Of a DNA stretch of 64,000 bases, positions 1-24,770 are shown piece after piece. The translations under genes and the position numbers were made by a program. The notes beneath the pieces are model-generated. The model was given only the letters and a program-made list of their open reading frames with translations. It was not told the DNA's origin and ran no database searches. Position 1 is the stretch's first letter, and each line of letters begins with the position of its first letter. The stretch is from Minisyncoccota bacterium. GTDB lineage: Bacteria; Patescibacteriota; Minisyncoccia; Phycocordibacterales; DASSSU01. The DNA lies in NCBI GenBank assembly GCA_035708305.1, contig DASSSU010000020.1:8481-72480 (forward strand), written 5' to 3'.

Positions 1-1027
1 TTTCTTTTTTCAGCATGCCCCCGAACCACCAGGCAATGTTTTCATCCGAGGCGAAAAAAATTTTCTGCGGAGAAATTCCGCCACGCATAAAACGCCGTAT
101 TTCTTCCTGAAGCTTCGCCAGCCAGTCTTTCGCACAATTTTGAAGCGTTTTTTCCACCAGTACCGCGGTGTTCTTCTCCGCCCGCTCCGACGCTTGCATA
201 AAAAGCAGCGACTCCGCTTCCGGCAAACTCACGCGGAGTGTCTCGGCTATCCGCCGCAAAACGAAATTTTTCCCCAGCGGAAAAGCCGCGCTTTTTCGGA
301 CAATGCCATTTTCTACCCAGAGCATATCGGTCATCTCGCCGCTGATGTCAAGCAGTAAAAACGAGTGCTCACCGTGCAGAAGCATATCACGGATAATCAC
401 ATACGATGCAAACGGAAACGTGTGAAATCCCGTCTTTCGGTGATTAAAGCGACGGGAAACCTGTTCCGAGATATCATCGAGCACTCGGCCCGGAACCACG
501 CTTGCAAAAAACGCCACCTCTGCTTCCGTAATCATTTTCTTCTCGTAATCACTCACTTCATATCCGTTCAGACTGACGTGCATGCTTTCCTTTTCGATGA
601 GTTTGGGTGCACCAAGTTCTTCATCTTCGTATTTCTGTTTTTCTTCTTCTTCAAAATCCAACACTCTGGCGTTAATCGCATTCTCCAACAGCTGGTCCGT
701 CAAACGAAAAGGCTTATGCTTGGCAATCCGCGCGGCATCGTGCAAAGCGGCATACCATGGCGACGAAAAAAAGCACGCAACTTCGTCCACCACCTGCTTC
801 CCCGCCTTTCCCTCTAGTTTTTGCGAAACAGACTCAAACGCCTTTTTCATGGAAAGAAAAAAACGTCGGTGATCCAGCTTTTCCTGCGGATCAGTACTCT
901 CGCGAACCACTTGAAGAATTCTCGGCTTCATTCCGGGCTTGATTTCCGAAAGCGCAGCACCGACGGATGATGAACCGATATCAAAAACGGCAACAAGCTT
1001 TGTTCGTCCGCTTCCAAAGAATTTCAT
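1..1027 (-). CDS. Actin-like ATPase of the FtsA/PilM family, partial (C-terminus runs off the window start)
   Basis: Manual minus-strand translation from ATG at 1027 gives MKFFGSGRTKLVAVFDIGSSSVGAALSEI... with a second phosphate-like motif (LLLDISGEMTD). It is >340 aa open to position 1 and is not in the ORF track because no stop lies in the window. Confidence 0.5.
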   Translation of the reverse strand, partial: MKFFGSGRTKLVAVFDIGSSSVGAALSEIKPGMKPRILQVVRESTDPQEKLDHRRFFLSMKKAFESVSQKLEGKAGKQVVDEVACFFSSPWYAALHDAARIAKHKPFRLTDQLLENAINARVLDFEEEEKQKYEDEELGAPKLIEKESMHVSLNGYEVSDYEKKMITEAEVAFFASVVPGRVLDDISEQVSRRFNHRKTGFHTFPFASYVIIRDMLLHGEHSFLLLDISGEMTDMLWVENGIVRKSAAFPLGKNFVLRRIAETLRVSLPEAESLLFMQASERAEKNTAVLVEKTLQNCAKDWLAKLQEEIRRFMRGGISPQKIFFASDENIAWWFGGMLKKE

Positions 1028-1101
1028 AAAAACAGTATACCATCAAAAAAGCACACGCTTCTATTCGGAGCCGTGGATATCGAAACACTCCCAAAATTTT
1101 T

Positions 1102-2817
1102 TTAATTTGCCACCGCTGTCACCACGATTGTTGCCTGATAATTTCCACTCGGTGCAAAAATGTTGTTCTCTTCTGTGCCAAAGCAGATGGTGGTGTCCGC
1201 TCCGGCAGTGGTTGAGGAGACGGTCGAAGAATGAGCCACTTCGATTGAGCTCGTGCCGACAAATCCCCGCCATTTTAGATTTGAAGCGCCGGGATCGTTC
1301 AATGTTTCCGTACAACGAGTAGCATTCCCCCAAACAGAAGTATCCGTATCGGAACCAAAAGCACTGAATCCGAATTCAAAATCGCCACTGTTAACGTTCC
1401 AAAGCTCGGGAATTCCCGGACTCGTCTCGGAATAATCTGCAAAACTCTTTCCGTCTGCAAGATCTTTCATAGCAGGAGAAGAAGTCGCCTGCACCGTTAG
1501 TTGATAGCCGGTGGGGTTGTTCGTCACCACTCTCCACGTGGAAGATCCCACCGCACTTTGCACGGAAGTAGAGAGGTTCCGAAGTGAAACATCAACGGGT
1601 GCGGAAAGAGAAATTTCTGCCGGAATGTTGAGGTGTGCCAGAACAGCATCAGCACTCATACTGACTCCCGTCGGAGAAACTGCCACTTCCTCTTCGTTGC
1701 CGATCGTTTCAAAAGTCGCCGGGCTGCCTTGGTTGGCGTATGCCGTAGCAATCCATTCCGCAGACCGCGCAACAGATGAAATGCGGATCTCACCGACTCC
1801 ACCGGCATAATAAACGTTAGAATAAGTACCATACGATCGTATCAGTGCTCCAACTCCCAAGCTGTCAACACTTGTTGGAAAAGGATCTGTGTCCGTAGCC
1901 GTCGCTTCTGGAACCCCGTTGACATAGAGCCGCCTATCACTGCTGGATGAAGCAGTAAAGACCGCCAACACTTCTTCATTATCTGAAAGTGTCACACTGT
2001 TTGCTTCAAAACCATTGAAAACGGATGAATAAACAAAAGGACGCGGGTGGTTGTCACTGTGGAAGTTTATTCCAACGCTTTGATCATTAACCGTTGAATT
2101 CGAAACGATAACTCCGGCTGACGGAGTATTCACTTTGTGCCGCCCCCACACCAAGAAAGTAAACGGATAGCTTGTGATTGGTGCCGGCTGTATTTTGTAG
2201 TATGTCGATGACCCGTCAAAAATGTGCCCTTCGCCGATTCCAATATTTGCCGACGGAGGAGAGCCGTACTCTGTGATCGTATAAGCGTGACTGGTGCTTT
2301 CGCTCGCCCCACCGTCATGAGAAACGTATTGATACCCGCTGTTCCACACATTTTCTGATCCATATGTTGAAGAAGCAGCCGGCTCGCTCGCGCTGCTGTT
2401 GCCATAATACAAGTAAAAATCACTGTCCGTGGAGGAGGAGAGCGTTGGTGCTTCAAAATGGAGTTCTCCGGTCGAAGAAGCCGTGTTGATGGAAACCACC
2501 TCCCTCGGCACTTCCGTCACTCCGTCGCCTTCGGTCACGCGGATATCACCGCCACCTGACTGCACATGCTGGAAAAATCCTGCGGGCATCTTTGAGAGAT
2601 CGACATACACCGGAAAATCAGTGAGATCGGCTCCCACTTTTGTATGATCAATAGTGATCTTGACACGATAGTTCCAGGCGGAATCGTACCAATCAGGACT
2701 CCCGGCATGCGCAAAATGAAAATACGCCGCCAAAGACACACTGCCCATTACCACAACGAGGAAGAAAGAACCAAGAAATTTCTTGGAAAACGAAAAAGAA
2801 AAACACCGCGCAAACAT
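1102..2817 (-). CDS. Secreted/membrane-anchored DUF2341 + LamG (concanavalin-like) domain protein
   Basis: N-terminal hydrophobic segment, then WNYRVKITIDHTKVGADLTDFPVYVDL, which matches the DUF2341 consensus (W.YR..I.I...L.DFPVLV.L). The long Ser/Thr/Gly-rich beta-rich remainder is typical of LamG-like lectin folds. Confidence 0.5.
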   Translation of the reverse strand: MFARCFSFSFSKKFLGSFFLVVVMGSVSLAAYFHFAHAGSPDWYDSAWNYRVKITIDHTKVGADLTDFPVYVDLSKMPAGFFQHVQSGGGDIRVTEGDGVTEVPREVVSINTASSTGELHFEAPTLSSSTDSDFYLYYGNSSASEPAASSTYGSENVWNSGYQYVSHDGGASESTSHAYTITEYGSPPSANIGIGEGHIFDGSSTYYKIQPAPITSYPFTFLVWGRHKVNTPSAGVIVSNSTVNDQSVGINFHSDNHPRPFVYSSVFNGFEANSVTLSDNEEVLAVFTASSSSDRRLYVNGVPEATATDTDPFPTSVDSLGVGALIRSYGTYSNVYYAGGVGEIRISSVARSAEWIATAYANQGSPATFETIGNEEEVAVSPTGVSMSADAVLAHLNIPAEISLSAPVDVSLRNLSTSVQSAVGSSTWRVVTNNPTGYQLTVQATSSPAMKDLADGKSFADYSETSPGIPELWNVNSGDFEFGFSAFGSDTDTSVWGNATRCTETLNDPGASNLKWRGFVGTSSIEVAHSSTVSSTTAGADTTICFGTEENNIFAPSGNYQATIVVTAVAN

Positions 2818-2982
2818 ATCCTTCCGTCTATTATAAAGGATTTCATGTTTTTCAGCACGGGATAAAAAATTATTTGACCAGCAGTTCTTCTGGTTTTTTC
2901 TCTTTTTGGTAGGGTGTGAAAGAAAGATGTATCCCGATTTGTTGTAGTTTTTTTTCGCTTTGTTCCAGGAATTCCAGACGTT

Positions 2983-3828
2983 TTAAATGTTCTTCCTCAA
3001 TCGGCTGAGGATTCCCATCTGGTACGCTTCGTAGGCGCCCATACTGTACGCACCAGCAACATTGTTCTTGATCATAGTTTGAACATACTCCAACAACACA
3101 TCCCACCGTTCCCCACTCAAAAACATTTCATAAAATTCTGCTTTTGTTTTTATTCCTTTCACATACGGAGAAAAATCACTAAGCGAACCCGGCTCAATCT
3201 CCACATTCCAAACTCCGCCCGGATCAACCACCTCGAAAGAATATTTTTTCAGATTGGACTCAGAAGAGACTTGGTGCATCTGCAACCCGTACGCAGATGC
3301 ATGAATCGAGGCGCTCGCAATATCCACCGCACTGGGCGGGATGAGAATTGCCGGCATTTTCCCTTCTCTCATGAACTCTTCTTGTTGTTCTATGATTTCT
3401 TTGGGAACCTGAAATTGTGAAGGAACATCTTCTTCTGAACGATTATGATCCCACCACAATTCATCGGCAAGCGGGTGAGAATGAAAATCACAGACTTCAT
3501 TTGCGATACGAGCATTTTCGTTTCCGATATAAGGAATTCCAACCATAAAGTGATCTCCCTCTGAAAGTTTGACCAGATGCCATTTTCCGTCTTCCTGCCT
3601 AGCCAGCGAAAAAGACCATTCGTTGGGAAGATCATCGGCAAGCGCCCGGAACTCCTGGTGCAAAATGGTATTACATTCCCCTTCCACACCGGCGTTCACC
3701 TTTTCAAGCAGTTCCGCAACGGTAGGATTGTCAGCACGATCAAGGAGATCTTCATTCGTGTGAAGCGTCTGATGAGCACAGCCAGAGAGCATCGTAAGTG
3801 CGCCGGAAAAAACAGCCGCCCGGATCAT
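2983..3828 (-). CDS. Hypothetical lipoprotein (ORF runs to 4149 but the upstream part overlaps alaS; likely start at MIRAAVFSGALTMLSGC)
   Basis: Internal Met followed by a classic lipoprotein signal peptide and lipobox (LSGC). The upstream in-frame segment is acidic low-complexity and overlaps the alaS 3' end by >100 nt. Confidence 0.45.
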   Translation of the reverse strand: MIRAAVFSGALTMLSGCAHQTLHTNEDLLDRADNPTVAELLEKVNAGVEGECNTILHQEFRALADDLPNEWSFSLARQEDGKWHLVKLSEGDHFMVGIPYIGNENARIANEVCDFHSHPLADELWWDHNRSEEDVPSQFQVPKEIIEQQEEFMREGKMPAILIPPSAVDIASASIHASAYGLQMHQVSSESNLKKYSFEVVDPGGVWNVEIEPGSLSDFSPYVKGIKTKAEFYEMFLSGERWDVLLEYVQTMIKNNVAGAYSMGAYEAYQMGILSRLRKNI

Positions 3829-4040
3829 CTCACGGCGGCTTTCTTTGATTTCAAATTTTTTTTCCTCCGAAACTTCAGGTTTCAGTTTTTCAGAATCTCC
3901 TCGCGTTTCTTCCCCGTTTTTTCTTTCTGCATCACCGCCGTTTTCAGAAGAAATTTCTGCCGGCATTTCAAGAAGATTTTCCTCTTTCGGCTCTTCAGCT
4001 TGCGGACTTGAAAACGAAAATGATTCGAATCCCATTTGAT

Positions 4041-5843
4041 TTATTCTAGCACGGCTTTGATTCTCCGCACACCGGCAGAAGAGGCCTCTTCTTTCTTGAT
4101 TTTGAAGTGTCCGAGTTCCGAAGTATTTTTCACGTGCGGACCGCCGCAAAATTCCAAACTGTACTTTCCATCCGCTTCTCCGATCTGGTATACCCGAACT
4201 TTGTCGCCATATTTTTCTTCAAAAAGCCCGATAGCACCTCGCTTCTTCGCTTCTTCAAGCGGAATATCTTCGTAGAAAACCGGAAGCGCCGCCGTGATTT
4301 TTTCATTCACCAAATCTTCCACACGCTTCTTTTCTTCGTCACTCATCTTGTCCGGATGTGAAAAATCAAACCGCAAACGCTCCTTCGTGATGTTGCTTCC
4401 CTTTTGAAACACATGCTCACCCAAGACGTCGCGAAGTGCCTGATGCAGCAAGTGGGTCGCCGTATGGTACTTCACGGACATTTCGCTGTGGTCCGCCAGC
4501 CCGCCGTGAAATTTCTGCTCTGCACCTTTTCTTGATTTATCCTGATGCTCACGAAATGCGTGATCGAAGCTTTCACGATCGATACTGATATTTTTTTCAC
4601 GCGCAAGATCTTCCGTCATTTCGATCGGAAAACCGAAGCTCTGATACAGGTTGAACGCATCTTCGCCGGAAATACCGTCCGCTGAAAGCTTTTCAAATTG
4701 CTTCAAACCGTCTTTGAGCGTGCGGCGGAATTTTTCTTCTTCTTTCTGCACGACTCCGGCGATTGACTCAAAATCCTCAAGGTTCGGATATTGCTCGCGA
4801 TACATTTCCGACACAGTCTGGACGATCTCCTGAAGTTTTCCCGCTGGAAGGTGAAGCGCATCGGCAAATCGAATGCTCCTTCGCAAAAGCCGCCTGAGCA
4901 CGTAGCCCTGATCACGGTTCGAAGGCTCCACCCCGTCAGCAATGAGAAATGTCGCCGTGCGCATGTGGTCGGCAACAATTCTTTCCGCTTTTTCATTTTC
5001 CTTGGTCCTTTCAAAATTTCCAAGTGCTTGAATTTTCTCCCGGATCGAAACAAAAAAATCAACATCAAAAATCGTCTTCTTTCCGTTCACCACCATCGAC
5101 ACGCGCTCCAGTCCCGCGCCAGTATCAACGTTCTTCTGCTTGAGTTTGCCAATCACCTTGCCGTCTTTCTTCTCGTACTCCATGAAAACGTCATTCCAGA
5201 TTTCCACCACGTCCTGCCGGTCGTCCGCCGCCATGTATTCTTCTTTGGTGAGATCTCCCAAGCCATTTTCCGTCACGTCATAAAACATTTCCGTATCGGG
5301 ACCAGAGGGGCCATTGTCGCCCGGACTCCACCAGTTGGACTTGGCACTCATAAAGTAAATGCGGTTTTCCGGCACAAACTGCTTCCAGATTTCAAACGAC
5401 TCCGTATCTTTCGGGGCATTTTCGTCGCCTTCAAAAACCGTCACGTACAAACGTTTCGGATCAAGCCCTAAACCCTCTTCCCTGGACGTGAGAAATTCAA
5501 AGCTCCATGCGATCGCTTCTTTTTTAAAATACCCTTCCCCGATGCCGTCCGGCGCGGATGGATCGCCCAAGGACCAGTTGCCAAGCATCTCGAAAAACGT
5601 CGCGTGCGTATTGTCGCCAATCTCGTCGATGTCCACCGTACGTACGCATTTTTGTGCGTCTGCCAAACGCCTTCCTTGCGGGTGTTCTTGTCCCAGGAGA
5701 TACGGCACAAGCGGCTGCATCCCCGCCGTGTTGAAAAGCACGGAAGGATCGTTTTCCGGTACGAGCGGCGCAGAAGGAAGCACTGCATGTCCGCGCTTTT
5801 CAAAAAACGCCAAGAATCGCTTTCGTATTTCGTTTGAGGTCAT
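4041..5843 (-). CDS. alaS: Alanyl-tRNA synthetase, short form (catalytic + editing domains, no C-Ala domain)
   Basis: N-terminus MTSNEIRKRFLAFFEKRGHAVLPSAPLVPENDPSVLFNTAGMQPL is the canonical AlaRS start. The HTATHLLHQAL (HxxxH) motif and the C-terminal GGPHV motif mark the editing domain. Only 600 aa. Confidence 0.9.
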   Translation of the reverse strand: MTSNEIRKRFLAFFEKRGHAVLPSAPLVPENDPSVLFNTAGMQPLVPYLLGQEHPQGRRLADAQKCVRTVDIDEIGDNTHATFFEMLGNWSLGDPSAPDGIGEGYFKKEAIAWSFEFLTSREEGLGLDPKRLYVTVFEGDENAPKDTESFEIWKQFVPENRIYFMSAKSNWWSPGDNGPSGPDTEMFYDVTENGLGDLTKEEYMAADDRQDVVEIWNDVFMEYEKKDGKVIGKLKQKNVDTGAGLERVSMVVNGKKTIFDVDFFVSIREKIQALGNFERTKENEKAERIVADHMRTATFLIADGVEPSNRDQGYVLRRLLRRSIRFADALHLPAGKLQEIVQTVSEMYREQYPNLEDFESIAGVVQKEEEKFRRTLKDGLKQFEKLSADGISGEDAFNLYQSFGFPIEMTEDLAREKNISIDRESFDHAFREHQDKSRKGAEQKFHGGLADHSEMSVKYHTATHLLHQALRDVLGEHVFQKGSNITKERLRFDFSHPDKMSDEEKKRVEDLVNEKITAALPVFYEDIPLEEAKKRGAIGLFEEKYGDKVRVYQIGEADGKYSLEFCGGPHVKNTSELGHFKIKKEEASSAGVRRIKAVLE

Positions 5844-5923: not shown

Positions 5924-6427
5924 TCAAACTCTCGGTTCTTCTTGTACCCACAGAGAAAAATCATCCAGCATATTTTCCCAAAGCTCTTTATTGTTCACTT
6001 TTGCAAGCACCTCTTGAATGGGGAGCATTTTTACCTCTGTCACTGTTTCATCCGGATCAACTTCCCTCGTCTCACTTTTTTTTACAATGCAAAAACAAAT
6101 GATCTGATTTTCTTCATGATCATTATCGAGAATACTTGAAATACAATAACGAGGTTCACAAAAAATTACATCAAAACCAGTTTCTTCGGACATTTCTCGT
6201 TTTATAGTTTGAGAAAAAGCCTCTCCTGACTCTCTGTGGCCACCAGGGAAACCCCATATGTTACGCTTTGAATTAAAAATCACCGGCACAAGGCCATCTG
6301 CCTGGTGAAAAGCAATCGCATAGACACGTGAGAAAGTTGAGGGCACTGCATTTTTCCCAAGAGCATAGACTTTTACAGGATGCTTTGTATCTTTGAGAAA
6401 TATTTCTTTTGTCTTTTCCATTTCCAT
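5924..6427 (-). CDS. NUDIX hydrolase
   Basis: Nudix box GFPGGHRESGEAFSQTIKREMSEETG (Gx5Ex7REUxEExGU) is present. 167 aa. Confidence 0.8.
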   Translation of the reverse strand: MEMEKTKEIFLKDTKHPVKVYALGKNAVPSTFSRVYAIAFHQADGLVPVIFNSKRNIWGFPGGHRESGEAFSQTIKREMSEETGFDVIFCEPRYCISSILDNDHEENQIICFCIVKKSETREVDPDETVTEVKMLPIQEVLAKVNNKELWENMLDDFSLWVQEEPRV

Positions 6428-6474
6428 AAAAAACGCTTGCCTTAGTATATATTAAACTAAGGCAAGCGAAAAGT

Positions 6475-7029
6475 TTACCGAGTTATAATTGCTTGAACTT
6501 TGGCAGCAACTTTAAGAAGATCTCCTTCATTGTCAATTGGTATAAGACCAAGTGAAGAATAGACTTCATCGGCTTTACGAATAAGATCTTCGTTACTCGT
6601 CACATAATCAAGAGCAGAGGCTTCTTTCTTTTTTTGTATGCGCCGTAAACGTTCCTCTTCTTTAACATAGACCATGATTGAGAAATCAGGTCTCAAGAAA
6701 AGCGGAAGAATAAATTCAGGAAACTGCAACTCAAATACCCTGGCTAAAACTAGTGTCGAGTAATAAGATCGATCCACAAGCACAAAGTCAACATGTCCCA
6801 AGACTTGGCTAATTTCTTTTTCTGTTATAAGCCAAGCGGAAATGTAAAACCAAACATTTTTTGAAACCTTTGAATGGTTCAGTCTCTCAGCATTAAAACC
6901 TCTTGTCATAGATCTCAATGTTGTAACAGTATAGCCGTCCTTAGTGAGACGATGAACAAGGGCGCTGATAAGTGAGGTCTTACCGACACAATCATGACCG
7001 TCAAAAGTTACCGTTATCGTTTTTGCCAC
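6475..7029 (-). CDS. Thymidylate kinase-like P-loop nucleotide kinase
   Basis: P-loop FDGHDCVGKTS at the N-terminus. VLVDRSYYSTLV aligns to the Tmk DRH/lid region and DFSIMVYVKEEERLRRIQ to the Tmk C-terminal region. The start overlaps the upstream radical SAM gene by 16 nt. Confidence 0.65.
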   Translation of the reverse strand: MAKTITVTFDGHDCVGKTSLISALVHRLTKDGYTVTTLRSMTRGFNAERLNHSKVSKNVWFYISAWLITEKEISQVLGHVDFVLVDRSYYSTLVLARVFELQFPEFILPLFLRPDFSIMVYVKEEERLRRIQKKKEASALDYVTSNEDLIRKADEVYSSLGLIPIDNEGDLLKVAAKVQAIITR

Positions 7030-8015
7030 GACACAAGCTCCTTTACTGTTAAGGGTTCCAAAACATCTAAAGTCGCGAAACGGTTATCAACTAAAGATTG
7101 GAATTCTGCATAAAGCTTGTGCTTTCTATTGTCTGGATTACCCATTTCGTGAAGCAGTTCTGCTTCAGTAAAAAGTGAAGATAAAGCTTTGCGCAGTTTT
7201 GCGGTATTTTCTCCCTCAACAGAAGGCAAAAGGTTAATGAGTTTAGAGCGTTGCCTGGAGTCAACGAAAGCCCCTCCGGTTGGCGTAATCCAGCATGAAT
7301 CCCAACTCGGCTTGTCTGTGCTCGTATGCGTCAACGCGACTTTCACTCCGTCTACTTTAAAAATCTGTTTTCTTTCTGTTGTGCCTATAATTTGACCACC
7401 AAATGAAGCCAAGTTCCACATGTCAACAGCCTTTGGGTGACTTCCCTGATCGGCTCCCATTTCCGACAGAAAGGAGAAATACCCTTCCTTGAAGACGCTA
7501 ATTTCTGCACTCACCTCTTGCGCTAAAGATAAGTACTGCTCTATTTCTTCAATGGTTGAATTTTGTGCCTCAGCCACAACATTAAGCTTGATCCTCATTG
7601 AAGGGTTAACTTGACGAGCAGCTATAAGGTTTTTCTTAACCCTTTCAGGTCCACCATGAACTTTTGTGATTCTTTGCCATTCTTCATCAGACATTGAATG
7701 ATAACTCACATGTAGCTCATCAATATCTCGAACAACATCGAGACGATTAATCAGTTTATAGCCATTACTAATCATCGTAATCCGACTCGAGAATGGTCGG
7801 ATATTAACGATAATATCCTTCAAATCCTTCCGAAGGGTTGGCTCTCCCCCTGTTATAGTGCAATCGGTTACAGCAAGAGACGCGGCAGCCTCCATGAGCA
7901 TTCCATAATGTGTAGGATAGAGTGAGAAAGCAGGCGATTTGGTTCCTACATATTCGTTCAAGCAGAAATAACAATCAGCATTACAATGAGTTACTGTCAC
8001 AAACCGAATTTCCAT
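7014..8015 (-). CDS. Radical SAM enzyme with no auxiliary Fe-S cluster (viperin/MoaA-like core; candidate prokaryotic viperin)
   Basis: CNADCYFC (Cx3Cx2C) at residues 11-18, GGEPTL glycine-rich SAM motif, and ISNG ribose motif. The C-terminal half has a single Cys, so there is no SPASM or MoaA-type auxiliary cluster. ~330 aa. Confidence 0.8.
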   Translation of the reverse strand: MEIRFVTVTHCNADCYFCLNEYVGTKSPAFSLYPTHYGMLMEAAASLAVTDCTITGGEPTLRKDLKDIIVNIRPFSSRITMISNGYKLINRLDVVRDIDELHVSYHSMSDEEWQRITKVHGGPERVKKNLIAARQVNPSMRIKLNVVAEAQNSTIEEIEQYLSLAQEVSAEISVFKEGYFSFLSEMGADQGSHPKAVDMWNLASFGGQIIGTTERKQIFKVDGVKVALTHTSTDKPSWDSCWITPTGGAFVDSRQRSKLINLLPSVEGENTAKLRKALSSLFTEAELLHEMGNPDNRKHKLYAEFQSLVDNRFATLDVLEPLTVKELVSWQKR

Positions 8016-8133
8016 TGGTATTCCTCCAGTGCATAAAGTTAATGTACTAGCTCCTTTAATCTTCTAACATAGACTATGTAAATAGTCAACTATTATCTTT
8101 AAATCAGCCAGAACTTGAATATACTCCTAAAAA

Positions 8134-15834: not shown

Positions 15835-16365
15835 CTAATAAAGCTCTTTGTTTTTGAATGGGATCAGAGAAAGGATGACCGCTTCCGTATAATATTTTGT
15901 TCTATCAATAGCATTGTCGGTCAAAATCCCCACCGCGCCATTTTGTTGCTTTGAGTTCGTTCTTCCAAAGACAATATCATCCGCTTCACCGAGCTCTTTT
16001 CCTTGTTTCACCAGCTCAACAATTTTTCTTGGCAAGAAAAAAGTACTCGTTCTTGCTTTTCCCAAAATGCCATCTTTTGATTTCACAACCACCCAAGCAA
16101 ACACTTCCATACCAGTGTCCCGCTCTTCAATTCCTCCTTCAATGCCAACCCAGAAATCCGCGTGAGGCACTTCTTGGCAAGCATTCTCAATTCTGTTGTG
16201 GGCACCGGAAAAAGTTTCTGCATCACTCTGCGGCTGTGCACTTACCCCGGAAGGCACCAATACTCCTTCAACCTCAAACTGCTCATCCGGAAACATTTTC
16301 TGAAAACCACCAAGAGCGGCATTTATCTTTACCGGGTTTTGAGAAGCAACAATAATTTTCTTCAT
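15835..16365 (-). CDS. Inosine/xanthosine triphosphatase (YjjX/Maf-Ham1-like)
   Basis: MKKIIVASQNPVKINAALGGFQKMFPDEQFEVEGVLVPSGVSAQPQSDAETFSGAHNRIENA...DFWVGIEGGIE aligns closely with E. coli YjjX. The ORF-track N-terminal extension (to 16473) overlaps the tRNA and was rejected. Confidence 0.75.
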   Translation of the reverse strand: MKKIIVASQNPVKINAALGGFQKMFPDEQFEVEGVLVPSGVSAQPQSDAETFSGAHNRIENACQEVPHADFWVGIEGGIEERDTGMEVFAWVVVKSKDGILGKARTSTFFLPRKIVELVKQGKELGEADDIVFGRTNSKQQNGAVGILTDNAIDRTKYYTEAVILSLIPFKNKELY

Positions 16366-16437
16366 AAAAAATTCTGCTGAACGCTTCAAAAGCATGAGCG
16401 AAAATGCTCTGAAGGTCTCATTTTCTCTTTTATTTTG

Positions 16438-16511
16438 TGCGCATGCCAGGACTCGAACCTGGGACCTCGTCATTATCAGTGACGCGCTCTAACCACCTGA
16501 GCTACACGCGC
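16438..16511 (-). tRNA. tRNA-Ile (anticodon GAU)
   Basis: Reverse complement reads GCGCGTGTAGCTCAGGTGGTTAGAGCGCGTCACTGATAATGACGAGGTCCCAGGTTCGAGTCCTGGCATGCGCA. It has a 7-bp acceptor stem, D-loop AGCTCAGGTGGTTAGAGC, anticodon loop CTGATAA and T-loop GGTTCGAGTCC. CCA is not encoded. Confidence 0.85.
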
Positions 16512-17415: not shown

Positions 17416-18078
17416 TTATTCCAAAATCCCATCCAAGTTTACGTCGTAGAGAATTGCCTCCTGGACCAGACGGTATTCAAGAATTTCGTTTTCTTTGAAC
17501 CAGAGTTTGATCTCTCGTTCCGCCTCTTCCGGAGAGTCCGAACAGTGAATGAGATTGCGGATGGCACGATCATCAACGGTAGAGATCTCGTAGGAATCTA
17601 CAGTATAGTCACCGCGAATTGTTCCCACATCAGATGTCGTCGGCTCCGTACCGCCCACGAGCTTTTTTACAATAGCAACGCTCCGATTTCCTTCGATGAC
17701 AAATGCGAGCACCGGACCCGACGTCATATAGTGGGCATTCGCGCGAATAATGTCCTTTCCATACTCGATCGCCTCTTTTTCCACCGGAAGACCGTGCTTT
17801 TCACGATCTTTTACGATGTTGCCGCCCTTTTCCGTAAACCACACATCATCTTTCTGATAATGATCCCAGCACTGTTGTTCATTCGGAATCAGAAATTTGA
17901 AAGCAATGAACTTCAGCCCTGTGCGTTCAAAGCGGCTCACAATTTCTCCCATAAGTGAACGCTGTACACCATCCGGCTTGATGATCACCAGCGTGCGCTC
18001 TTTTTTTGGATGTTTTTGCATAATATAAAAGAAAATAAAATATACGCACACTATAACAAGCATGCCGCTTTTTTTCAA
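17416..18078 (-). CDS. ndk: Nucleoside diphosphate kinase (long form; true start possibly the internal Met at ~18018)
   Basis: LVIIKPDGVQRSLMGEIVSRFERTGLKFIAFKF, NAHYMTSGPVLAFVIEG, GTIRGDY and NLIHCSDSPEEAEREIKLWF are the NDK signature blocks. There is an extra N-terminal hydrophobic segment and an internal insertion. Confidence 0.85.
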   Translation of the reverse strand: MKKSGMLVIVCVYFIFFYIMQKHPKKERTLVIIKPDGVQRSLMGEIVSRFERTGLKFIAFKFLIPNEQQCWDHYQKDDVWFTEKGGNIVKDREKHGLPVEKEAIEYGKDIIRANAHYMTSGPVLAFVIEGNRSVAIVKKLVGGTEPTTSDVGTIRGDYTVDSYEISTVDDRAIRNLIHCSDSPEEAEREIKLWFKENEILEYRLVQEAILYDVNLDGILE

Positions 18079-18089
18079 GATTTTTTTCT

Positions 18090-18875
18090 TTACTGAGTGT
18101 CCGAAACTGACTGTGTCATCACCTGTGCGCCGTCTTCTCCCACGAGAATCGTATGCTCAAAATGTGCACTCAGTGATCCATCCGCTGTGCGAATCGTATA
18201 GCCGTCTTCGTCCACTGTCAGATATCGCCCTCCGGCGTTCAGCATCGGCTCAATTGCCAAGACCATTCCCGGAACAATCTTTGGTCCGGTTCCCTGGTTG
18301 CCAAAGTTCGCGATGTACGGCTCTTCGTGCACGTGGTGCCCAACCCCATGACCGCCAAGTTCCCGAACAATGCTGTATCCGAAAGGCATAACGAAAGATT
18401 GGATCACAAAACCAATGTCGCCAATGTTTCCCCCAGGCACTGCCACCGCAATCGCACGCTCCAGCGCTTCTTTGGTAACATCCAAAAGCTTTTGTGCTTC
18501 GTACGAGATTTTTCCGACCGGAACCGTCCGCGCACTGTCGGTGATCATTCCGCCGTGATTCACCCCGAGATCAAGCCCGACAATGTCGCCTTCCTGCAAG
18601 ATTCGCGTTTCAGAAGGAATCCCGTGAACAATCTCGTCGTTGACGGAAATACACAAGGAGGCAGGAAAAGGTGTAGTCGCCCCTTCGGGAGAATATCCAA
18701 GAAAGGCAGGCTCATCTCCACGGCTGCGGATCATGCCCTCCGCAATGCGATCCAGCTCTTTTGTGCTCACTCCAGGGCGCACCGCCGCGGCAACTGCATC
18801 GAGCGCAAGCGAAAGCCTCCGCCCACTTTCTCTCAAAAGCTCCGCGTCCTCCTGTGTTTTGATGATCGTTCCCAT
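18090..18875 (-). CDS. map: Methionine aminopeptidase, type I
   Basis: Metal-binding blocks HGIPSETRILQEGDIVGLDLGVNHGGMITDSART and HHVHEEP...LAIEPM are present. 261 aa. Confidence 0.9.
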   Translation of the reverse strand: MGTIIKTQEDAELLRESGRRLSLALDAVAAAVRPGVSTKELDRIAEGMIRSRGDEPAFLGYSPEGATTPFPASLCISVNDEIVHGIPSETRILQEGDIVGLDLGVNHGGMITDSARTVPVGKISYEAQKLLDVTKEALERAIAVAVPGGNIGDIGFVIQSFVMPFGYSIVRELGGHGVGHHVHEEPYIANFGNQGTGPKIVPGMVLAIEPMLNAGGRYLTVDEDGYTIRTADGSLSAHFEHTILVGEDGAQVMTQSVSDTQ

Positions 18876-18879
18876 ATTT

Positions 18880-19467
18880 TTATACTTGCGAACCTAACTT
18901 TTCGATGATTTCCTCAAAGACCTGCTCGGCACTCTGTTCTCCGTTCACCTCCAAAAGTGTTCCATGTTTTCGAAAAATTTCCACGGCCGGAAGCACTTCT
19001 TTCTGAAAATTGTCAAAGCGTGTTTTGATTGCCGCTTCTTCATCATCCTTCCGATGCTGAATGTCTTTGCGTTTCAGCAGTCGATGGATCGCTTCTTCAT
19101 CCGACACATCAATGTAAAATGCCACATACGGACGCCCCAGCCAAGTCATCACATCGTGGAAAAGTTCCGCTTCCGGCGCTTTTCTCGCCACACCGTCAAA
19201 GATAATTCCTTTGTCACTGTGCGTATACAGAGCTTTTTCCTCAAAAACAAACGAGGCAAACCAGTACGGCATCAATCCGCCATTGTCCAAAACATTTCCG
19301 ATTCTTTCACCCAGCGGGCCGCCCTCTGCTGCCAAATCACGGAAACGCTGACCACTGGAATAGGTGTCGTAACCGGTTACCTTTGAGAGGAGCGCGCTCT
19401 GAGTCCCCTTTCCGGATCCAGGCTTTCCAAGCATCGCAAACGCCTTGTACTTTTGAAGTATATCCAT
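18880..19467 (-). CDS. adk: Adenylate kinase
   Basis: P-loop MLGKPGSGKGTQSALL and NMP-binding/LID-region motifs. 195 aa, adjacent to map as in spc-alpha operons. Confidence 0.9.
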   Translation of the reverse strand: MDILQKYKAFAMLGKPGSGKGTQSALLSKVTGYDTYSSGQRFRDLAAEGGPLGERIGNVLDNGGLMPYWFASFVFEEKALYTHSDKGIIFDGVARKAPEAELFHDVMTWLGRPYVAFYIDVSDEEAIHRLLKRKDIQHRKDDEEAAIKTRFDNFQKEVLPAVEIFRKHGTLLEVNGEQSAEQVFEEIIEKLGSQV

Positions 19468-19633
19468 TATTTCATAACCTTAATGCTAATGCAGTCTTTT
19501 CGAAAAACGAACGCTTCCTACAGCTTATCATAAAGTTTCAAAAAAGGTAAAATTTCCGTGAAATATGAGCAATCCTGAAAGGAGCCATCCTGGTACTCAA
19601 ATCCAGGCACACTTTTCCTTTATTTTCATAGAA

Positions 19634-20905
19634 TTATTCTGAAGCTTTATACAGATCATACACGAGGCCGTCATAATCATCCGTAATGAAAATATCGCCA
19701 TTTGAATTTTCCAAAATGCCCGCTGCTCTGCCCGCGCGTTTTCCATCTTTCAAAAATCCGCTCACGATCGGAGTGACAGTCGCCCCATCTTTCGAAACAC
19801 GGACAACAGCATTGCCGGTTCCGATCGAGACATTCCCAGAACCGTGAAGTGCCACAAGAAATGAATTTTGAAGTACACTTCCTGCTTTCGAATCTACAAA
19901 TTCAATCCCCAACGGCGCACTGTGTGGCGGAAGATCGGTAAAAGCAGCAGGAACAACAGAGCAATCGAAAGAATTTTTCCAATTCTCGGTTGTATCAGGC
20001 AGAACTTTTCCATTGAGATAATAGCAATACGGCCAGCCGTAATTTGCTCCCGCTTGTATTTTCAAGACCACGTCATTTGGCGCACCGTTCCCCAAATGAT
20101 CGACCCCCATGTCGGTGGCGTAAAGCGAATCGCCCACAAAGTCGAGTCCGACAGCATTGCGAAGACCGTTTGCATACACCTTGAGGTTTTTACCATCCGG
20201 ATCCATCAGAAGGATACTTGCTCGCTTGAAATTCATCTCTTCGCATCCATCACAGCTTGAACCGACAGAGACATAGATTTTATCGTCGTGAATCGCAAGA
20301 GTTCGCGTGAGGTGCCAGCCGCCTTCCGAAGCAGGATTCCCAAAATCAGGAAAGGTGGCAATCGTCTGCGGGTCGCCCAGCGGTTGCATATCGCCCGCAT
20401 GATATGGATAACGGATGAGTTTATCCGTAAGCGCAATGTAGATCCATTCTTTTCCGCTCGTGTCTTTATAGAATGTGACACTGTTTGGATTGCGGAGATT
20501 GGAAAGATAAACACTCTTTAATCCGAACGTGTGCGTTTCGGAATTGAAGCCGCTCAAAATGTAGATCTTTCCATTATCAGTGTCGCCGGCGTTGATCATA
20601 TCGGGAACAAACAATCGCCCATCGGGAGAGAGCGCCATAAAGCGCGGCTTTGTCATTCCGTTTGCGGCGACAGAAATGTGATAGCCATCTGGAATCGTGA
20701 GACCAAATGACCCAAGTGGAAGACCGGGAGCAGAAATTGTTTCCGTGTGATAAGAAAGATTCCGTATCGGTGAGCTGCTCCCTTCATTCTGATTCTCACT
20801 CGTTTGACCGGATGGATTTTCGGCAGGAGAAAATTCATTTTTGTACACGAAAAATCCCGCGCCAATAATGATCAGAACAATGATGGTGGTCCAAAAAGTT
20901 TTCAT
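19634..20905 (-). CDS. Secreted beta-propeller protein, soluble glucose/sorbosone dehydrogenase (GSDH)-like
   Basis: N-terminal TM/signal. Repeated blade-like segments (ALSPDGRLFV, GKIYIL, DGKNLKVYANGLRNAVGLDF, NYGWPYCYY) resemble the PQQ-dependent sugar dehydrogenase fold. Assignment is by pattern only. Confidence 0.4.
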   Translation of the reverse strand: MKTFWTTIIVLIIIGAGFFVYKNEFSPAENPSGQTSENQNEGSSSPIRNLSYHTETISAPGLPLGSFGLTIPDGYHISVAANGMTKPRFMALSPDGRLFVPDMINAGDTDNGKIYILSGFNSETHTFGLKSVYLSNLRNPNSVTFYKDTSGKEWIYIALTDKLIRYPYHAGDMQPLGDPQTIATFPDFGNPASEGGWHLTRTLAIHDDKIYVSVGSSCDGCEEMNFKRASILLMDPDGKNLKVYANGLRNAVGLDFVGDSLYATDMGVDHLGNGAPNDVVLKIQAGANYGWPYCYYLNGKVLPDTTENWKNSFDCSVVPAAFTDLPPHSAPLGIEFVDSKAGSVLQNSFLVALHGSGNVSIGTGNAVVRVSKDGATVTPIVSGFLKDGKRAGRAAGILENSNGDIFITDDYDGLVYDLYKASE

Positions 20906-20920
20906 TCAAAAAAAGAATCA

Positions 20921-21256
20921 TTACATCGGCCTTGTTTCCATGATTTCGATCGTTGCCCCTGGAATGTCGAAATGCGGATGACCCTTGAAGGCTTCTGCTG
21001 CCGCTTCGAGGGATTCGGCCACAACATATGACGAGAGCATCATGTCGTTCTTTACATCTTCAACTCCGTCTGCACTCACCCGTTTTGTTTTTCCAAGTGC
21101 GATCGTATTTTGCACAAGATCGGTATGATTCGCCATCCATTCATCCCATTTTTTCTTCATGTCCGCCTCCCCGGTCTTTCGCTCGGCTTCCGGCTTTTGC
21201 ATCCATTTCTCCATCTCGCTTACCGGCGCCATATATATTGCTGTGAAATATTTCAT
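20921..21256 (-). CDS. Hypothetical small protein (111 aa)
   Basis: Clean ORF with no recognisable motif. Possibly a dimeric alpha/beta barrel. Confidence 0.35.
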   Translation of the reverse strand: MKYFTAIYMAPVSEMEKWMQKPEAERKTGEADMKKKWDEWMANHTDLVQNTIALGKTKRVSADGVEDVKNDMMLSSYVVAESLEAAAEAFKGHPHFDIPGATIEIMETRPM

Positions 21257-21282
21257 ATTATTTTTTAAATTATTTTAATAAA

Positions 21283-22170
21283 TTACACGTTCTGTAATTT
21301 TTCTATATCGATCTTTTTCATCTTCATCATCGCGTTCATCGCTGCAGGTTTGTTCATCACGAGCTCGCCCATGTTTTTCGGAATGATTTGCCATGACACG
21401 CCGTACTTGTCTTTCAGCCATCCGCACTGTTCGGACTCCGGTACAGCCGAGAGCTTTTCCCAGTAGTAGTCAATTTCCGCTTGGTCGTCGCAATTCACAA
21501 TGAACGAAACCGCTTCGTTCAAATCAAATTGGTGCATATCGCGGCCGGAATCCATAGCCGCAAACCAAACACCAAGAAGCTGGAAGTCGAGATAAGCAAT
21601 CTTGCTTGCGTCGTCCGGCGCCGTGCCCGGTTCATACGGAAACGTATTCCCTTTCTGGAAATCTTTGAAAACGGAAAGATAAAAATCACGCGCCTCTTCC
21701 GCTTTCCCGGCATTCTCATGAATGAACATGATCGATGGAGTAATCTTCGGCCGAGGATCGCCTTCAGGATTCGTGAGTATAAGCTGCCAAGAAAGGCCGT
21801 ATTTATCTTCAACCCACCCATACCACGGACTGAACGGATACTCGCCAAGCTCCATCAAAACTTTGCCGCCGTCCGAGAGTTTCTCCCAATACCCATCAAC
21901 TTCTTCCCTGCTCTCACAATTTACAAGAAATGATTTGGAGGGGTTGAACCTGAATATCGGGCCGCCATCGAGCGCGAAAAAAGATTGGCCAAAAAGTTCG
22001 AAGAACCCGTTCAAAACTTTTCCATCCATCCCCTGCAAATGTTTGTCCTCGGCATTTTCCGGATAATACACCGTGTCGACAATCTTCGAGTCTGGAAATA
22101 CCGACACATAAAAGTTCATCGCTTCTTCGCAATTTTTATCAAACCACAATCCTGGTACGATTTTTTGCAT
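21283..22170 (-). CDS. Tandem VOC-family protein (PhnB / 3-demethylubiquinone-9 3-methyltransferase-like, two repeats)
   Basis: Two ~140-aa repeats, each starting like PF06983 proteins (QKIVPGLWFDKNCEEAMNFYVSVFPDSKI and KITPSIMFIHENAGKAEEARDFYLSVFKD). Confidence 0.6.
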   Translation of the reverse strand: MQKIVPGLWFDKNCEEAMNFYVSVFPDSKIVDTVYYPENAEDKHLQGMDGKVLNGFFELFGQSFFALDGGPIFRFNPSKSFLVNCESREEVDGYWEKLSDGGKVLMELGEYPFSPWYGWVEDKYGLSWQLILTNPEGDPRPKITPSIMFIHENAGKAEEARDFYLSVFKDFQKGNTFPYEPGTAPDDASKIAYLDFQLLGVWFAAMDSGRDMHQFDLNEAVSFIVNCDDQAEIDYYWEKLSAVPESEQCGWLKDKYGVSWQIIPKNMGELVMNKPAAMNAMMKMKKIDIEKLQNV

Positions 22171-22192
22171 ATTTTTTATTTAAATAATAACT

Positions 22193-22786
22193 TTAAACTT
22201 CAATCGTGCCTGTTTTGACTTCTCCTGCCCGTTTGTATGACGCGATGATTATACCAGTTGTCGTGACTTCACATTCCAGCAATTTAAATGCTGCGGGAAT
22301 CGCACCATTGTCAAACAACTTCTTTCCTGAACCGAGCGTCAGCGGGTAAATTTTGAGCCGAAGTTCATCCACCAAATCGTTCGCAAGAAGTAACTGAACG
22401 AGTTTGCTGCTACCCCAAACTTGAATGTCGCGACCATTTCCCTCTTTGAGCCTTTTGATATCTTCCACACTTTTGATAAATACGGTGTTTTCCCAATCTG
22501 TCTCTTCTACGGTATTGGACAGAACATATTTTGTCCCATCCGTGATTGCCAGCCAAAAATCCGTATGCTTCGGCCAGTATGGTTCCCAAATTCCGAAAGT
22601 TTTTCTTCCTAAAAGATAATCGGCGGGTTCCATCTCCTTTTTCACGATCTTTCCCGAGACCTCATCCGCATACGAGGCTGTCCAGCCGCCATACTTAAAC
22701 CCGCCCGATGTATCTTCCTCAGGCCCACCGGGCGCTTGCATGACTCCGTCGAGCGTTATCATTTCTATGACAATGATTTTTCTCAT
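22193..22786 (-). CDS. RibD C-terminal domain / dihydrofolate-reductase-like reductase (YwjB family)
   Basis: MRKIIVIEMITLDGVMQAPGGPEEDTSGGFKYGGWT is the RibD_C family N-terminus. 197 aa. Confidence 0.7.
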   Translation of the reverse strand: MRKIIVIEMITLDGVMQAPGGPEEDTSGGFKYGGWTASYADEVSGKIVKKEMEPADYLLGRKTFGIWEPYWPKHTDFWLAITDGTKYVLSNTVEETDWENTVFIKSVEDIKRLKEGNGRDIQVWGSSKLVQLLLANDLVDELRLKIYPLTLGSGKKLFDNGAIPAAFKLLECEVTTTGIIIASYKRAGEVKTGTIEV

Positions 22787-22944
22787 AGTTTACTCATTGC
22801 TCTTAAATTATTAAAATACTGCCGCACGAGTCCGGATTATTTACCGCGAAACTGCTGAATGCTTTCGTGTCCTTAGGTACAGTATATCAAATTAAGAATT
22901 TTTAATCCCAGGTTCCTGTGAACCGTCGGCTTATGCCGAATATA

Positions 22945-22982
22945 ACAAAATACGTCCCTAAAAGGACGTATTTTGTGTTTTG
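22945..22982 (-). terminator. Rho-independent terminator immediately downstream of secY (hairpin also usable on the + strand)
   Basis: tacgtcc-ctaaaa-ggacgta hairpin with T-runs on both sides. It separates secY from the downstream accessory genes. Confidence 0.55.
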
Positions 22983-23030
22983 CTTTGAGGATATAAATTC
23001 TTTGAACTATTTCAGAAATCAAGATTCTGT

Positions 23031-24302: not shown

Positions 24303-24320
24303 ACGAGAAATTTAAGGGAA

Positions 24321-24749
24321 TTATACCACCTTTCCGCCTGCACTCTCTATTTTCTTCTTCGCACTCTCCGAAACTTCACATTTGGAAATTTCGAGCTTTT
24401 TGGAAAGATCCCCTCCTCCCAAAATTTTCACCTGCGGAAGCTTGCCATCCCGCTTGCGAATAATGTTTTTGTTCAGAAGCACCGTAGGAGTGACACGCTC
24501 TCCTGAGTTGAAGCTCTCCAAAACAGAAACATTCACCACTTCTGGATGAGCACTGCGCGAATGGAATCGATATCCTCGCTGCTTCGGGATCTTTTTGATG
24601 AGGTCTCGCAATTCCGGGCGAAGTTTTGCACCAGCGCGCGCTTTCTGCCCCTTTGTTCCGCGTCCGGAAGTTTTTCCGCGCTTTCCGCCGCGTCCTACTC
24701 GCTTTTTTGTGCTGTTTGGATGCTCTCTGGTAATGTTGTGAATCTGCAT
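24321..24749 (-). CDS. rplO: 50S ribosomal protein L15
   Basis: GRGGKRGKTSGRGTKGQKARAG glycine/lysine-rich N-terminus typical of L15. 142 aa. Confidence 0.9.
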   Translation of the reverse strand: MQIHNITREHPNSTKKRVGRGGKRGKTSGRGTKGQKARAGAKLRPELRDLIKKIPKQRGYRFHSRSAHPEVVNVSVLESFNSGERVTPTVLLNKNIIRKRDGKLPQVKILGGGDLSKKLEISKCEVSESAKKKIESAGGKVV

Positions 24750-24770
24750 GGTTCTTTGAATTAATCGAAA

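Follow-up and report, generated by a model that had tools for sequence, protein, structure and literature searches.

In this study, we identified, in the genome of a Paceibacterota (CPR) bacterium, a conserved operon of three genes that is horizontally mobile or acquired. It encodes a radical SAM (rSAM) protein, a thymidylate-kinase-type P-loop kinase and a NUDIX pyrophosphohydrolase, and its rSAM protein founds a rare, previously undescribed MoaA-derived family lacking an auxiliary Fe-S cluster. The operon lies within a window of 64,000 nucleotides, the whole stretch of DNA that was analysed. Judged from sequence, it appears to make or manage a modified nucleotide and most likely serves as a conflict system, a viperin-like antiviral defence that evolved independently from a MoaA-like ancestor; we put forward this leading reading tentatively, at a little below even confidence. 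A literature search found no description of an rSAM–kinase–NUDIX/GreA-like gene combination.

All three genes are on the minus strand, between trpS, for a class I tRNA synthetase of the Trp/Tyr type, and alaS, for a class II Ala enzyme. The rSAM gene (7014..8015; 333 aa; open reading frame list and Pfam Radical_SAM) ends within the kinase gene (6475..7029; 184 aa; PF02223), its stop and the GTG start of the kinase overlapping by 16 nt (7014..7029), an arrangement of translational coupling. Use of this GTG yields a conserved MAK... N-terminus. The NUDIX gene (5924..6427; 167 aa; PF00293) follows after 47 nt (6428–6474). Inspection of the sequence revealed a GGAGGA ribosome-binding site 6 nt ahead of the rSAM ATG, in the upstream region presumed to contain the promoter (8016..8133, minus strand), where a promoter consensus scan found nothing above chance expectation. 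A housekeeping Ndk gene is also encoded within the window. A first-pass annotation, made from the letters alone, had described the three reading frames, their motifs and their spacing; the open reading frame list, the sequence and the coordinates, including the 16-nt overlap and the 47-nt gap, agree with it throughout.

Downstream of the kinase stop, the 47-nt gap to NUDIX holds a terminator-like hairpin with a U6 tract (6428..6468, minus strand; RNA fold and inverted repeat I2), which the first-pass annotation had overlooked. A perfect 13-bp stem (6434–6468) is followed by U6 at 6428–6433, abutting the NUDIX ATG; the predicted free energy is −25.9 kcal/mol (z −6.9), and none of 200 shuffled sequences was equally stable. 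Given so strong a terminator-like element, co-expression of NUDIX with the two upstream genes is uncertain. The consensus scan for promoters and terminators gave counts equal to the shuffle expectation and missed this long-loop hairpin. No tRNA was found at the module borders, and neither flanking direct repeats nor insertion scars were found around the module.

Of 14 informative loci, 13 had the rSAM and kinase genes side by side, usually overlapping (by 13–19 nt in L001, L003, L009, L011 and L124, and by 1 nt in L008), while the flanking genes were different at every locus. The recurrence of the pair amid unrelated flanks excludes chance juxtaposition, and the outcome raised beforehand, that orthologues would never co-occur with the kinase, is not the case. 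In one subclade (L006/L090), a nucleotidyltransferase-like gene replaces the kinase. The NUDIX-bearing trio was present in the window, L001, L003, L004, L092 and L124, each time with different neighbours. At most loci, the window among them, the surrounding genes are of housekeeping type (tRNA synthetases, chaperones, ribosomal proteins). Only two to three of the 14 loci have neighbours with a clear link to defence; L119 has a complete Gabija system immediately upstream of the module, and L008 has, likewise upstream, an HEC-04-like ATPase and a HEPN protein.

The composition of the module is foreign to its host genome, its GC3 being 0.31–0.38 versus 0.533 ± 0.056 for 28 other window genes, and it contains those kilobases of the window that are lowest in GC. 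The rSAM family was found in two of 185,579 species genomes, one of them a Bacteroidota metagenome-assembled genome, and 22 close homologues were found among 5.8 billion proteins. The L003 genome uses genetic code 25, and the rSAM–kinase pair of a code-25 genome contains no TGA codon. An origin from phage was rejected, since no family member was present among 2.9 million viral contigs; the rSAM proteins found there were all distant, with identities no higher than 38% that were confined to short parts of the N-terminus, and the PHROG matches were generic.

The rSAM protein matches Pfam Radical_SAM at 54 bits (cut-off 29.5). Its cluster motif, C11-x3-C15-x2-C18 (7962..7985, minus strand), lies within the family signature CNADCYFCLNEYxGxKS, and its SAM-binding GGEP motif comprises G56-G57-E58-P59 (7839..7850, minus strand). 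Across the 19 sequences of alignment A1, residues C11, N12, C15, F17, C18, L19, N20, E21, Y22, G24 and K26 are invariant, as are G56, G57, E58 and P59, which align to the GGEP of MoaA, AbmM and viperin. The only remaining cysteines, C52 and C241, of which C241 alone falls in the C-terminal half, are not invariant in the family, so that the auxiliary-cluster motif is absent. The same alignment thus upholds the original description of a CxxxCxxC motif at residues 11–18, a GGEP motif and no auxiliary Fe-S cysteines.

The placement of the protein rests on HMM, hhalign and fold comparisons, in every one of which MoaA was nearer than viperin. The MoaA models TIGR02666 and TIGR02668 gave 81 and 88 bits over residues 2–173 only (equivalog cut-offs 284 and 325 bits). 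The prokaryotic viperin model NF038283 (viperin_w_prok, NCBIfam) gave 60.5 bits (cut-off 180) and matched only at profile positions 6–168 of 281, and the PADLOC models for prokaryotic viperins (pVips), the sole defence models matched, gave 56–58 bits over only the N-terminal ~160 residues. Likewise, the hhalign alignment of human viperin with the family spans 148 N-terminal columns. A MoaA-like outgroup, by comparison, aligned at E 4e-61 over 271 columns, which amounts to full-length homology. The overall MoaA fold is present, including the C-terminal beta-sheet domain. A viperin-type C-terminal extension closing over the NTP, expected of a pVip, was not found in the rSAM protein: its C-terminal half shares homology with the corresponding half of the MoaA-like outgroup and not with the viperin extension (hhalign).

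Several contacts to the nucleotide phosphates are held in common with MoaA and viperin. R4 aligns to MoaA R17, and K143/N145 in the KLNVV strand match the K-x-N found in the KVNVV strand of MoaA and the FKLNTV strand of viperin. R4, K143 and N145 are invariant in the family, as are K26, R62, H102, H106, D252, R254, R256 and R312. Half of the MoaA GTP contacts are nevertheless unconserved (K69/R71 face D/T, and the R266/R268 region is replaced). MoaA also carries a C-terminal cysteine triad for an auxiliary 4Fe-4S cluster, and the three corresponding columns of the outgroup face S/W/D in the rSAM family. Where MoaA has molybdenum cofactor (Moco) genes as neighbours, the rSAM gene has a Tmk-like kinase; none of the Moco genes (MoaC/B/D/E) was found in the gene tables of related loci or among the scanned window neighbours. 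MoaA proper was rejected on these grounds together with its sub-threshold scores. QueE, PqqE/SPASM, NrdG and peptide maturases were rejected as well, having given only weak matches to the N-terminal core (22–43 bits).

By sequence as well as by fold, the rSAM protein is closest to enzymes that all work on nucleotides or nucleosides, namely MoaA (GTP), AbmM (albomycin thionucleoside), BlsE (cytosylglucuronate) and viperin (CTP/UTP). These comparisons place the rSAM protein as a third, separate lineage in the nucleotide-acting MoaA/viperin branch. Viperin membership is not supported, whereas a viperin-like function is possible; because the protein falls below every curated family threshold, its reaction is not predictable from similarity. 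The first-pass annotation had proposed a pVip-like antiviral module and had named a MoaA variant as the contrary outcome. What stands of the former is a real, mobile module with an rSAM protein of the nucleotide-acting branch that lacks an auxiliary cluster; pVip membership falls. The latter is half true, as MoaA is the closest family but the protein scores below the MoaA cut-offs and has neither the C-terminal cysteines nor Moco neighbours.

The kinase matches PF02223 (Thymidylate_kin) at 41 bits (cut-off 27) but reaches only 35.9 bits with the dTMP kinase model TIGR00041 (cut-off 83), and its top solved-structure relatives are thymidylate kinases (51 bits). On these scores, we assign it to the Tmk superfamily, outside the dTMP kinase equivalog. 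Its P-loop, GHDCVGKT (residues 11–18; 6976..6999, minus strand), follows the family motif F(D/E)GHDGxGK(T/S). In alignment A3, F9, G11, H12, D13, G16, K17, D86 and R87 are invariant, together with the LID residues E124, R127, R130 and D141. The kinase sits in a small clade of its own, which has about 13 members and is followed by a gap, with housekeeping Tmk appearing from E ~1e-10. All 11 of the 11 module kinases matched PADLOC PDC-M51B and VakA.

The third position of the module is occupied by a co-evolving NUDIX protein in six loci and by a GreA-like factor in four. The NUDIX protein of the window (PF00293, 43.3 bits; cut-off 21.1) has a complete Nudix box, GHRESGEAFSQTIKREMSEETG (residues 63–84; 6176..6241, minus strand), by regex match to GX5EX7REX2EEXG. 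Homologues with 25–48% identity occupy the same slot in the five other NUDIX-bearing loci, and by sequence these proteins belong to a module-specific group. Only about one locus in two carries NUDIX, an observation that counts against the reading as a conflict system. The GreA-like factor occurs in four lineages whose rSAM proteins are 29–41% identical to each other. Compared with the transcript-cleavage factors GreA/GreB and TFIIS, these proteins align with GreA end to end, at 72–84 bits (GreA cut-offs 139–167), and keep acidic tip residues. Unlike GreA, they have a one-residue insertion and a private tip motif, SRDGDGTHDNPxY/FH, in which DGDGxHDNP replaces the GDLSENAEY of ordinary GreAs, those of CPR bacteria included. 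They form a clade of about nine members, followed by a gap, that is tied to the rSAM–kinase pair. With a clade and a tip motif of their own, chance adjacency to a housekeeping greA is rejected.

Beside MoaA and the Gre-type factors, three known systems are most comparable to the module. Like the window rSAM protein, pVips are single-cluster rSAM enzymes of the same branch with a nucleotide kinase neighbour; both have a defence-island context at some loci, and the product of the module, too, is plausibly a polymerase-poisoning nucleotide. However, the kinase linkage is near-obligate in the module (13 of the 14 loci), whereas 12% of bacterial viperins have a kinase nearby (Shomar et al. preprint), and third genes of the NUDIX or GreA-like kind are a feature of the module not described for pVips. 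The thmABC genes of Photorhabdus asymbiotica, which make 4'-thiothymidine, encode an rSAM enzyme, a nucleoside kinase and a self-resistance nucleoside triphosphatase (PMC12691670). In gene layout as described, thmABC and the module are alike, each being an rSAM, kinase and NTP hydrolase unit with variable flanks. They differ in that ThmB is an AbmG-like nucleoside kinase and the module kinase is Tmk-type, that ThmC is a nucleoside triphosphatase not stated to be a NUDIX enzyme, and that thmABC is hosted by Enterobacterales and Vibrio and the module by CPR bacteria. A candidate ThmA-like relative in the 'Enterobacterales' match L029 was discarded as a high-GC SPASM-type rSAM protein in an unrelated context. 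AbmM (PDB 8wm2), the sulfur-for-oxygen-swapping rSAM enzyme of albomycin synthesis, acts on a nucleoside or nucleotide sugar; it was the top single-sequence PDB match to the rSAM protein (E 6e-8) and shares with it the ...FC(H/L)NE... signature straight after the cluster motif.

Taking the gene content and these relatives together, we infer that the substrate is converted to a product that is probably a toxic, polymerase-poisoning nucleotide analogue, and that the module probably carries a self-protection gene; its role would most likely be defence, with antibiotic production possible. The kinase would phosphorylate a nucleoside mono- or diphosphate, and housekeeping Ndk could finish the triphosphate. 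A 5'-deoxyadenosyl radical formed by the rSAM enzyme would abstract a ribose hydrogen, giving a ribose-altered analogue that poisons polymerases. NUDIX may hydrolyse the analogue triphosphate, sparing the producer or resetting the pool. At loci without NUDIX, the GreA-like factor, acting in the secondary channel of RNA polymerase, could remove the analogue from host transcripts that have stalled, a rescue from which single-subunit phage polymerases would be barred. As a precedent, chain-terminating analogues are excised from Pol II by TFIIS, which the T7-like POLRMT cannot do (PMC3499576). The signs of mobility, the Gabija and HEC-04 surroundings and the thmABC layout favour a conflict system; the housekeeping surroundings of most loci, the subclade with a nucleotidyltransferase-like gene, the sub-threshold family scores, the unconserved GTP contacts and the hairpin ahead of NUDIX speak against it, as does the reliance of CPR bacteria on nucleotide salvage. 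In its fullest form, this would be a second, independent 'viperin', in which a MoaA-derived rSAM enzyme minus its auxiliary cluster and an obligate private kinase make a new RNA polymerase-poisoning nucleotide, immunity comes from NUDIX destroying the analogue or from the GreA-like factor excising it, and host RNA polymerase is spared while phage polymerases are blocked. So specific a version is possible but doubtful.

Other explanations have to be weighed against an independently evolved defence. A genuine pVip with its kinase would convert CTP, UTP or GTP to 3'-deoxy-3',4'-didehydro (ddh) nucleotides, by which phage transcripts would be terminated. The CxxxCxxC and GGEP motifs, the missing auxiliary cluster and the exclusive PADLOC pVip matches are in keeping with this, as are the VakA matches of the kinase and its place in the Tmk superfamily alongside the CMPK2-type viperin kinases. 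However, the sub-threshold, N-terminally confined viperin matches, the greater closeness of MoaA throughout and a C-terminal half like that of the MoaA-like outgroup make it very unlikely. In a minimal cluster for a secreted nucleoside-analogue antibiotic, the rSAM enzyme and kinase would build the compound and NUDIX would confer self-resistance, as in thmABC and the thiosugar steps of albomycin synthesis. This is unlikely, given that no conserved exporter or tailoring gene accompanies the module, that intracellular immunity better accounts for the GreA-like partner and for Gabija and HEC-04 as neighbours, and that the hosts are ultra-small CPR cells.

A metabolic module, serving nucleotide salvage or providing a modified nucleotide or cofactor precursor through a variant MoaA-like cyclase, with kinase and NUDIX adjusting phosphorylation, would fit the MoaA top curated matches and the housekeeping flanks at most loci. 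CPR bacteria depend on nucleotide salvage, which makes a metabolic role for the kinase and NUDIX plausible. Against it, the family is very rare and patchy, its composition is foreign, it has been transferred across phyla and genetic codes, and it lacks both Moco genes at any locus and the MoaA auxiliary cluster; on balance we consider it quite unlikely. NUDIX enzymes often degrade signalling nucleotides, and a regulatory nucleotide could act on the secondary channel of RNA polymerase with the GreA-like factor, as ppGpp does with DksA, NUDIX degrading the signal and transcription being shut down or reprogrammed under stress or infection. The dedicated GreA-like clade, its altered tip motif and its tight linkage to the pair in four lineages speak for such a role. 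It is nonetheless highly improbable, because a GreA-like gene is missing from the module of the window, the GreA-like factor and NUDIX replace each other and do not act as partners, and no sensor or regulator domain occurs within the module.

To our knowledge, no immune enzymes other than viperins use radical chemistry to make antiviral nucleotides, and we know of few characterised defence systems in CPR bacteria. Viperin products are drug leads. Should it turn out to serve antibiotic synthesis or metabolism instead, the module would still offer an uncharacterised rSAM family in a simple three-gene context for heterologous study. The occurrence of either NUDIX or the GreA-like factor in the third position leads to the testable idea that the producer protects its own polymerase by either degrading or excising the analogue. 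Were the second, independent 'viperin' to prove true, it would constitute a new anti-phage system, its product would be a new antiviral nucleotide, and the GreA-like factor would be the first Gre-type protein dedicated to immunity. More generally, if this MoaA-derived lineage performs chemistry similar to that of viperins, the strategy would have evolved more than once, a new nucleotide analogue would be probable, and nucleotide-based conflict systems would extend to CPR bacteria.

Three genes on the minus strand of the window encode a radical SAM (rSAM) enzyme of 333 aa (7014–8015), a thymidylate kinase-like kinase of 184 aa (6475–7029) and a NUDIX protein of 167 aa with a complete Nudix box (5924–6427), each above the gathering score of its Pfam model (Radical_SAM, Thymidylate_kin and NUDIX, respectively). 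The rSAM and kinase ORFs overlap by 16 nt and a 47-nt gap separates the kinase and NUDIX ORFs, confirming every detail of the trio described in the first-pass annotation; its placement between trpS and alaS also held, as a TrpRS-type gene and an AlaRS gene flank the module. In NCBI, an entry originating from a Candidatus Paceibacterota MAG matches the rSAM protein at 100% identity. A terminator-like 13-bp perfect hairpin followed by U6, overlooked in the first pass, lies between the kinase stop codon and the NUDIX ATG (6428–6468, minus strand; dG −25.9 kcal/mol, z −6.9). It abuts the NUDIX start codon with no space for a ribosome-binding site, so NUDIX expression may require either read-through or melting of the hairpin. 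In a related locus, L092, the hairpin is missing, since the kinase gene there overlaps the NUDIX gene.

The window AlaRS (4041–5843) has only 600 aa, comprising the catalytic core and tRNA_SAD domain, and lacks the extended C-terminal region usual in bacterial AlaRS. An NTPase_I-T/DUF84 gene (ITP/XTP-type house-cleaning NTPase; 15835–16511) has a below-average GC3 of 0.41; its annotated start overlaps tRNA-Ile(GAT) (16437–16511), so translation probably begins further downstream. Positions 17416–25466 cover the last part of the ribosomal-protein/secY cluster together with adk, map and ndk, and the long Ndk ORF (220 aa) matches the NDK domain as two separate stretches.

The first pass had read the rSAM as part of a candidate module resembling prokaryotic viperins (pVips). 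The residues it named are present, namely C11-x3-C15-x2-C18 and GGEP (residues 56–59), and auxiliary Fe-S cysteine clusters are absent, the sole further cysteines (C52 and C241) not being kept across the family. Placement among the viperins was not supported. Among curated HMMs, MoaA models ranked top (88 and 81 bits versus cut-offs of 325 and 284) and the viperin model fourth (60.5 bits versus 180), with MoaA and viperin matches spanning residues ~2–170 only; PADLOC pVip models gave 56–58 bits. Against PDB sequences, the family profile scored 60.7 bits for MoaA, 55.4 for the albomycin rSAM AbmM and 42.6 for a viperin-like enzyme. Using hhalign, the profile matched true MoaA (P0024) at E 1.6e-21 (164 columns, 30% identity) and a human viperin sequence at E 2.7e-11 (148 columns, 22% identity). 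A confident AF2 model (pLDDT 88.7, pTM 0.88) likewise resembled solved MoaA structures (Foldseek TM 0.66–0.68) more than viperins (0.51–0.58). That the enzyme is a true pVip is thus very unlikely.

About two dozen rSAM family clusters emerged when 1.84 billion cluster representatives were searched exhaustively, and the next tier consists of ~300-aa proteins all matching MoaA models. Alignment of the family with this outgroup takes in the C-terminal domain (271 columns, E 4e-61), and the outgroup's three cysteine columns face S, W and D in the family. Taken together, the MoaA-first scores, the full-length outgroup homology and the missing cysteines indicate that the rSAM is a MoaA-derived enzyme that has lost its auxiliary cluster, and is neither a MoaA equivalog nor a viperin family member. 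R4 corresponds in the alignment to MoaA R17, which is among the three arginines mutated in PDB 2fb2, and the KLNVV strand to MoaA KVNVV and viperin FKLNTV. These conserved residues and, by analogy, the substrates of all nearest solved relatives are consistent with a nucleotide substrate.

Gene context was compared across 14 informative non-redundant loci, namely the window and 13 genome or metagenome contigs with family members (L001, L003, L004, L006, L007, L008, L009, L011, L092, L093, L094, L119 and L124). The kinase linkage proposed in the first-pass annotation recurs widely: the kinase adjoins the rSAM in 13 of the 14, mostly with a 1–19-nt overlap, gene order being permuted in L093. The exception is the L006/L090 subclade, where a nucleotidyltransferase-like gene (L090:44–961, L006:3–251; 305 aa, weak NTP_transf_2 match) ends 1–2 nt before the rSAM start and the kinase is absent; L006 carries a convergent HAD phosphatase instead. 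The module kinases form their own group of ~13 members (next matches E 5e-19 and 2e-14; ordinary dTMP kinases come after these, at around E 1e-10) with invariant P-loop, DR and LID motifs. Their closest solved relatives are thymidylate kinases, and all 11 tested matched the PADLOC PDC-M51B and VakA models. The third position holds a module-specific NUDIX in six loci (mutual identity 25–48%), an unrelated, oppositely oriented NUDIX in one further locus, a GreA-like protein in four and nothing recognisable in two of the 14. Flanking genes vary across every locus and are mostly housekeeping. In L119 the rSAM-kinase-GreA-like module is immediately preceded by a complete Gabija system (206–4337), with full-length GajA (938 bits) and GajB split into 237-aa and 330-aa ORFs, suggesting a frameshift or assembly error; the rSAM there is a short form (287 aa). 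An HEC-04-like ATPase (155 bits) and a HEPN protein lie directly upstream in L008. In L001, from a Minisyncoccia MAG, an archaeal-type AdoMet synthase (PF01941; 11461–12675) lies ~4.5 kb downstream of the module, with three genes lacking annotation and a HATPase_c protein in between, and might be linked to SAM supply.

The four GreA-like proteins (L008:4790–5269; L093:1282–1815; L007:6759–7253, convergent on the opposite strand; L119:6575–7075) align end to end with GreA at 72–84 bits versus cut-offs of 139–167. In all four the tip motif reads SRDGDGTHDNPx(Y/F)H, where ordinary GreAs, including those of Patescibacteria and Microgenomates, have GDLSENAEY. Their clade has ~9 members in 5.8 billion sequences, ordinary GreAs following after a gap (E 3e-29 to 1e-22), and adjoins the rSAM-kinase pair in every inspectable locus. 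As rSAM identity among these loci is only 29–41%, the linkage is old or repeatedly gained. In L008 (4246–4770) and L093 (742–1266), a conserved 174-aa protein without a family match, with a predicted N-terminal membrane helix, is encoded between the kinase and GreA-like genes, overlapping the kinase stop.

The family is rare. Only 22 close rSAM homologues occur among 5.8 billion proteins (E ≤ 1.7e-64; next match E 6e-9). A pattern scan of 185,579 species, which takes one genome each and would miss divergent subfamilies, detected the family in two of them: a Minisyncoccia MAG, and a MAG of Fluviicola (Bacteroidota) in which the adjoining genes are of Bacteroidota type; metagenome contigs gave seven more loci, and the viral contigs searched added none. 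GC3 of the three module genes is 0.31–0.38 versus 0.533 ± 0.056 for 28 other window genes, and the kilobases with the lowest GC content anywhere in the 64-kb window fall in the module. The host of L003 (Logan ERR7850089 contig, locus at 6001–8071) reads TGA as glycine (code 25); neighbouring genes each carry 1–18 in-frame TGA codons and the module NUDIX 10, whereas the rSAM and kinase contain no TGA and have a higher GC content (0.38/0.35 versus 0.26). This suggests that a standard-code donor recently supplied the pair, by import or replacement, and that the NUDIX gene is native to the host.

We found no description of an rSAM, kinase and NUDIX or Gre-like combination in the literature searched. 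The module is predicted to work like pVip-kinase pairs, although its rSAM scores outside that family, and like thmABC of Photorhabdus, to which we liken it by described gene content: rSAM, kinase and an NTPase conferring resistance, in a cluster that makes 4′-thiothymidine (PMC12691670). It is set apart by a near-obligate private kinase, versus a nearby kinase in 12% of bacterial viperins (Shomar et al. preprint), by a MoaA-type C-terminal domain without the MoaA cluster, by alternating NUDIX and Gre-like partners, and by a distribution centred on CPR.

GreA-type factors enter the RNAP active site via the NTP-entry channel. TFIIS, their eukaryotic functional analogue, excises chain terminators such as 3′-dAMP from Pol II transcripts, a rescue that the single-subunit mitochondrial polymerase lacks (PMC3499576). 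The module probably constitutes a nucleotide-modifying pathway. Its kinase would make or activate a phosphorylated nucleotide, with the Ndk encoded within the window (17416–18078) able to supply the triphosphate step, and the rSAM would alter the ribose of that nucleotide by radical chemistry, giving a product predicted to interfere with polymerases. The NUDIX would protect the producer by degrading the analogue, and the Gre-like factor of sister operons by excising it. Such a product might instead be a secreted nucleoside antibiotic, the main alternative, for which thmABC is a proven three-gene precedent but which we consider rather unlikely; a metabolic role is also improbable. Observed families, motifs, linkage, mobility and neighbours lead us to predict, tentatively, that the module is a conflict system in which antiviral defence would be the most likely role.
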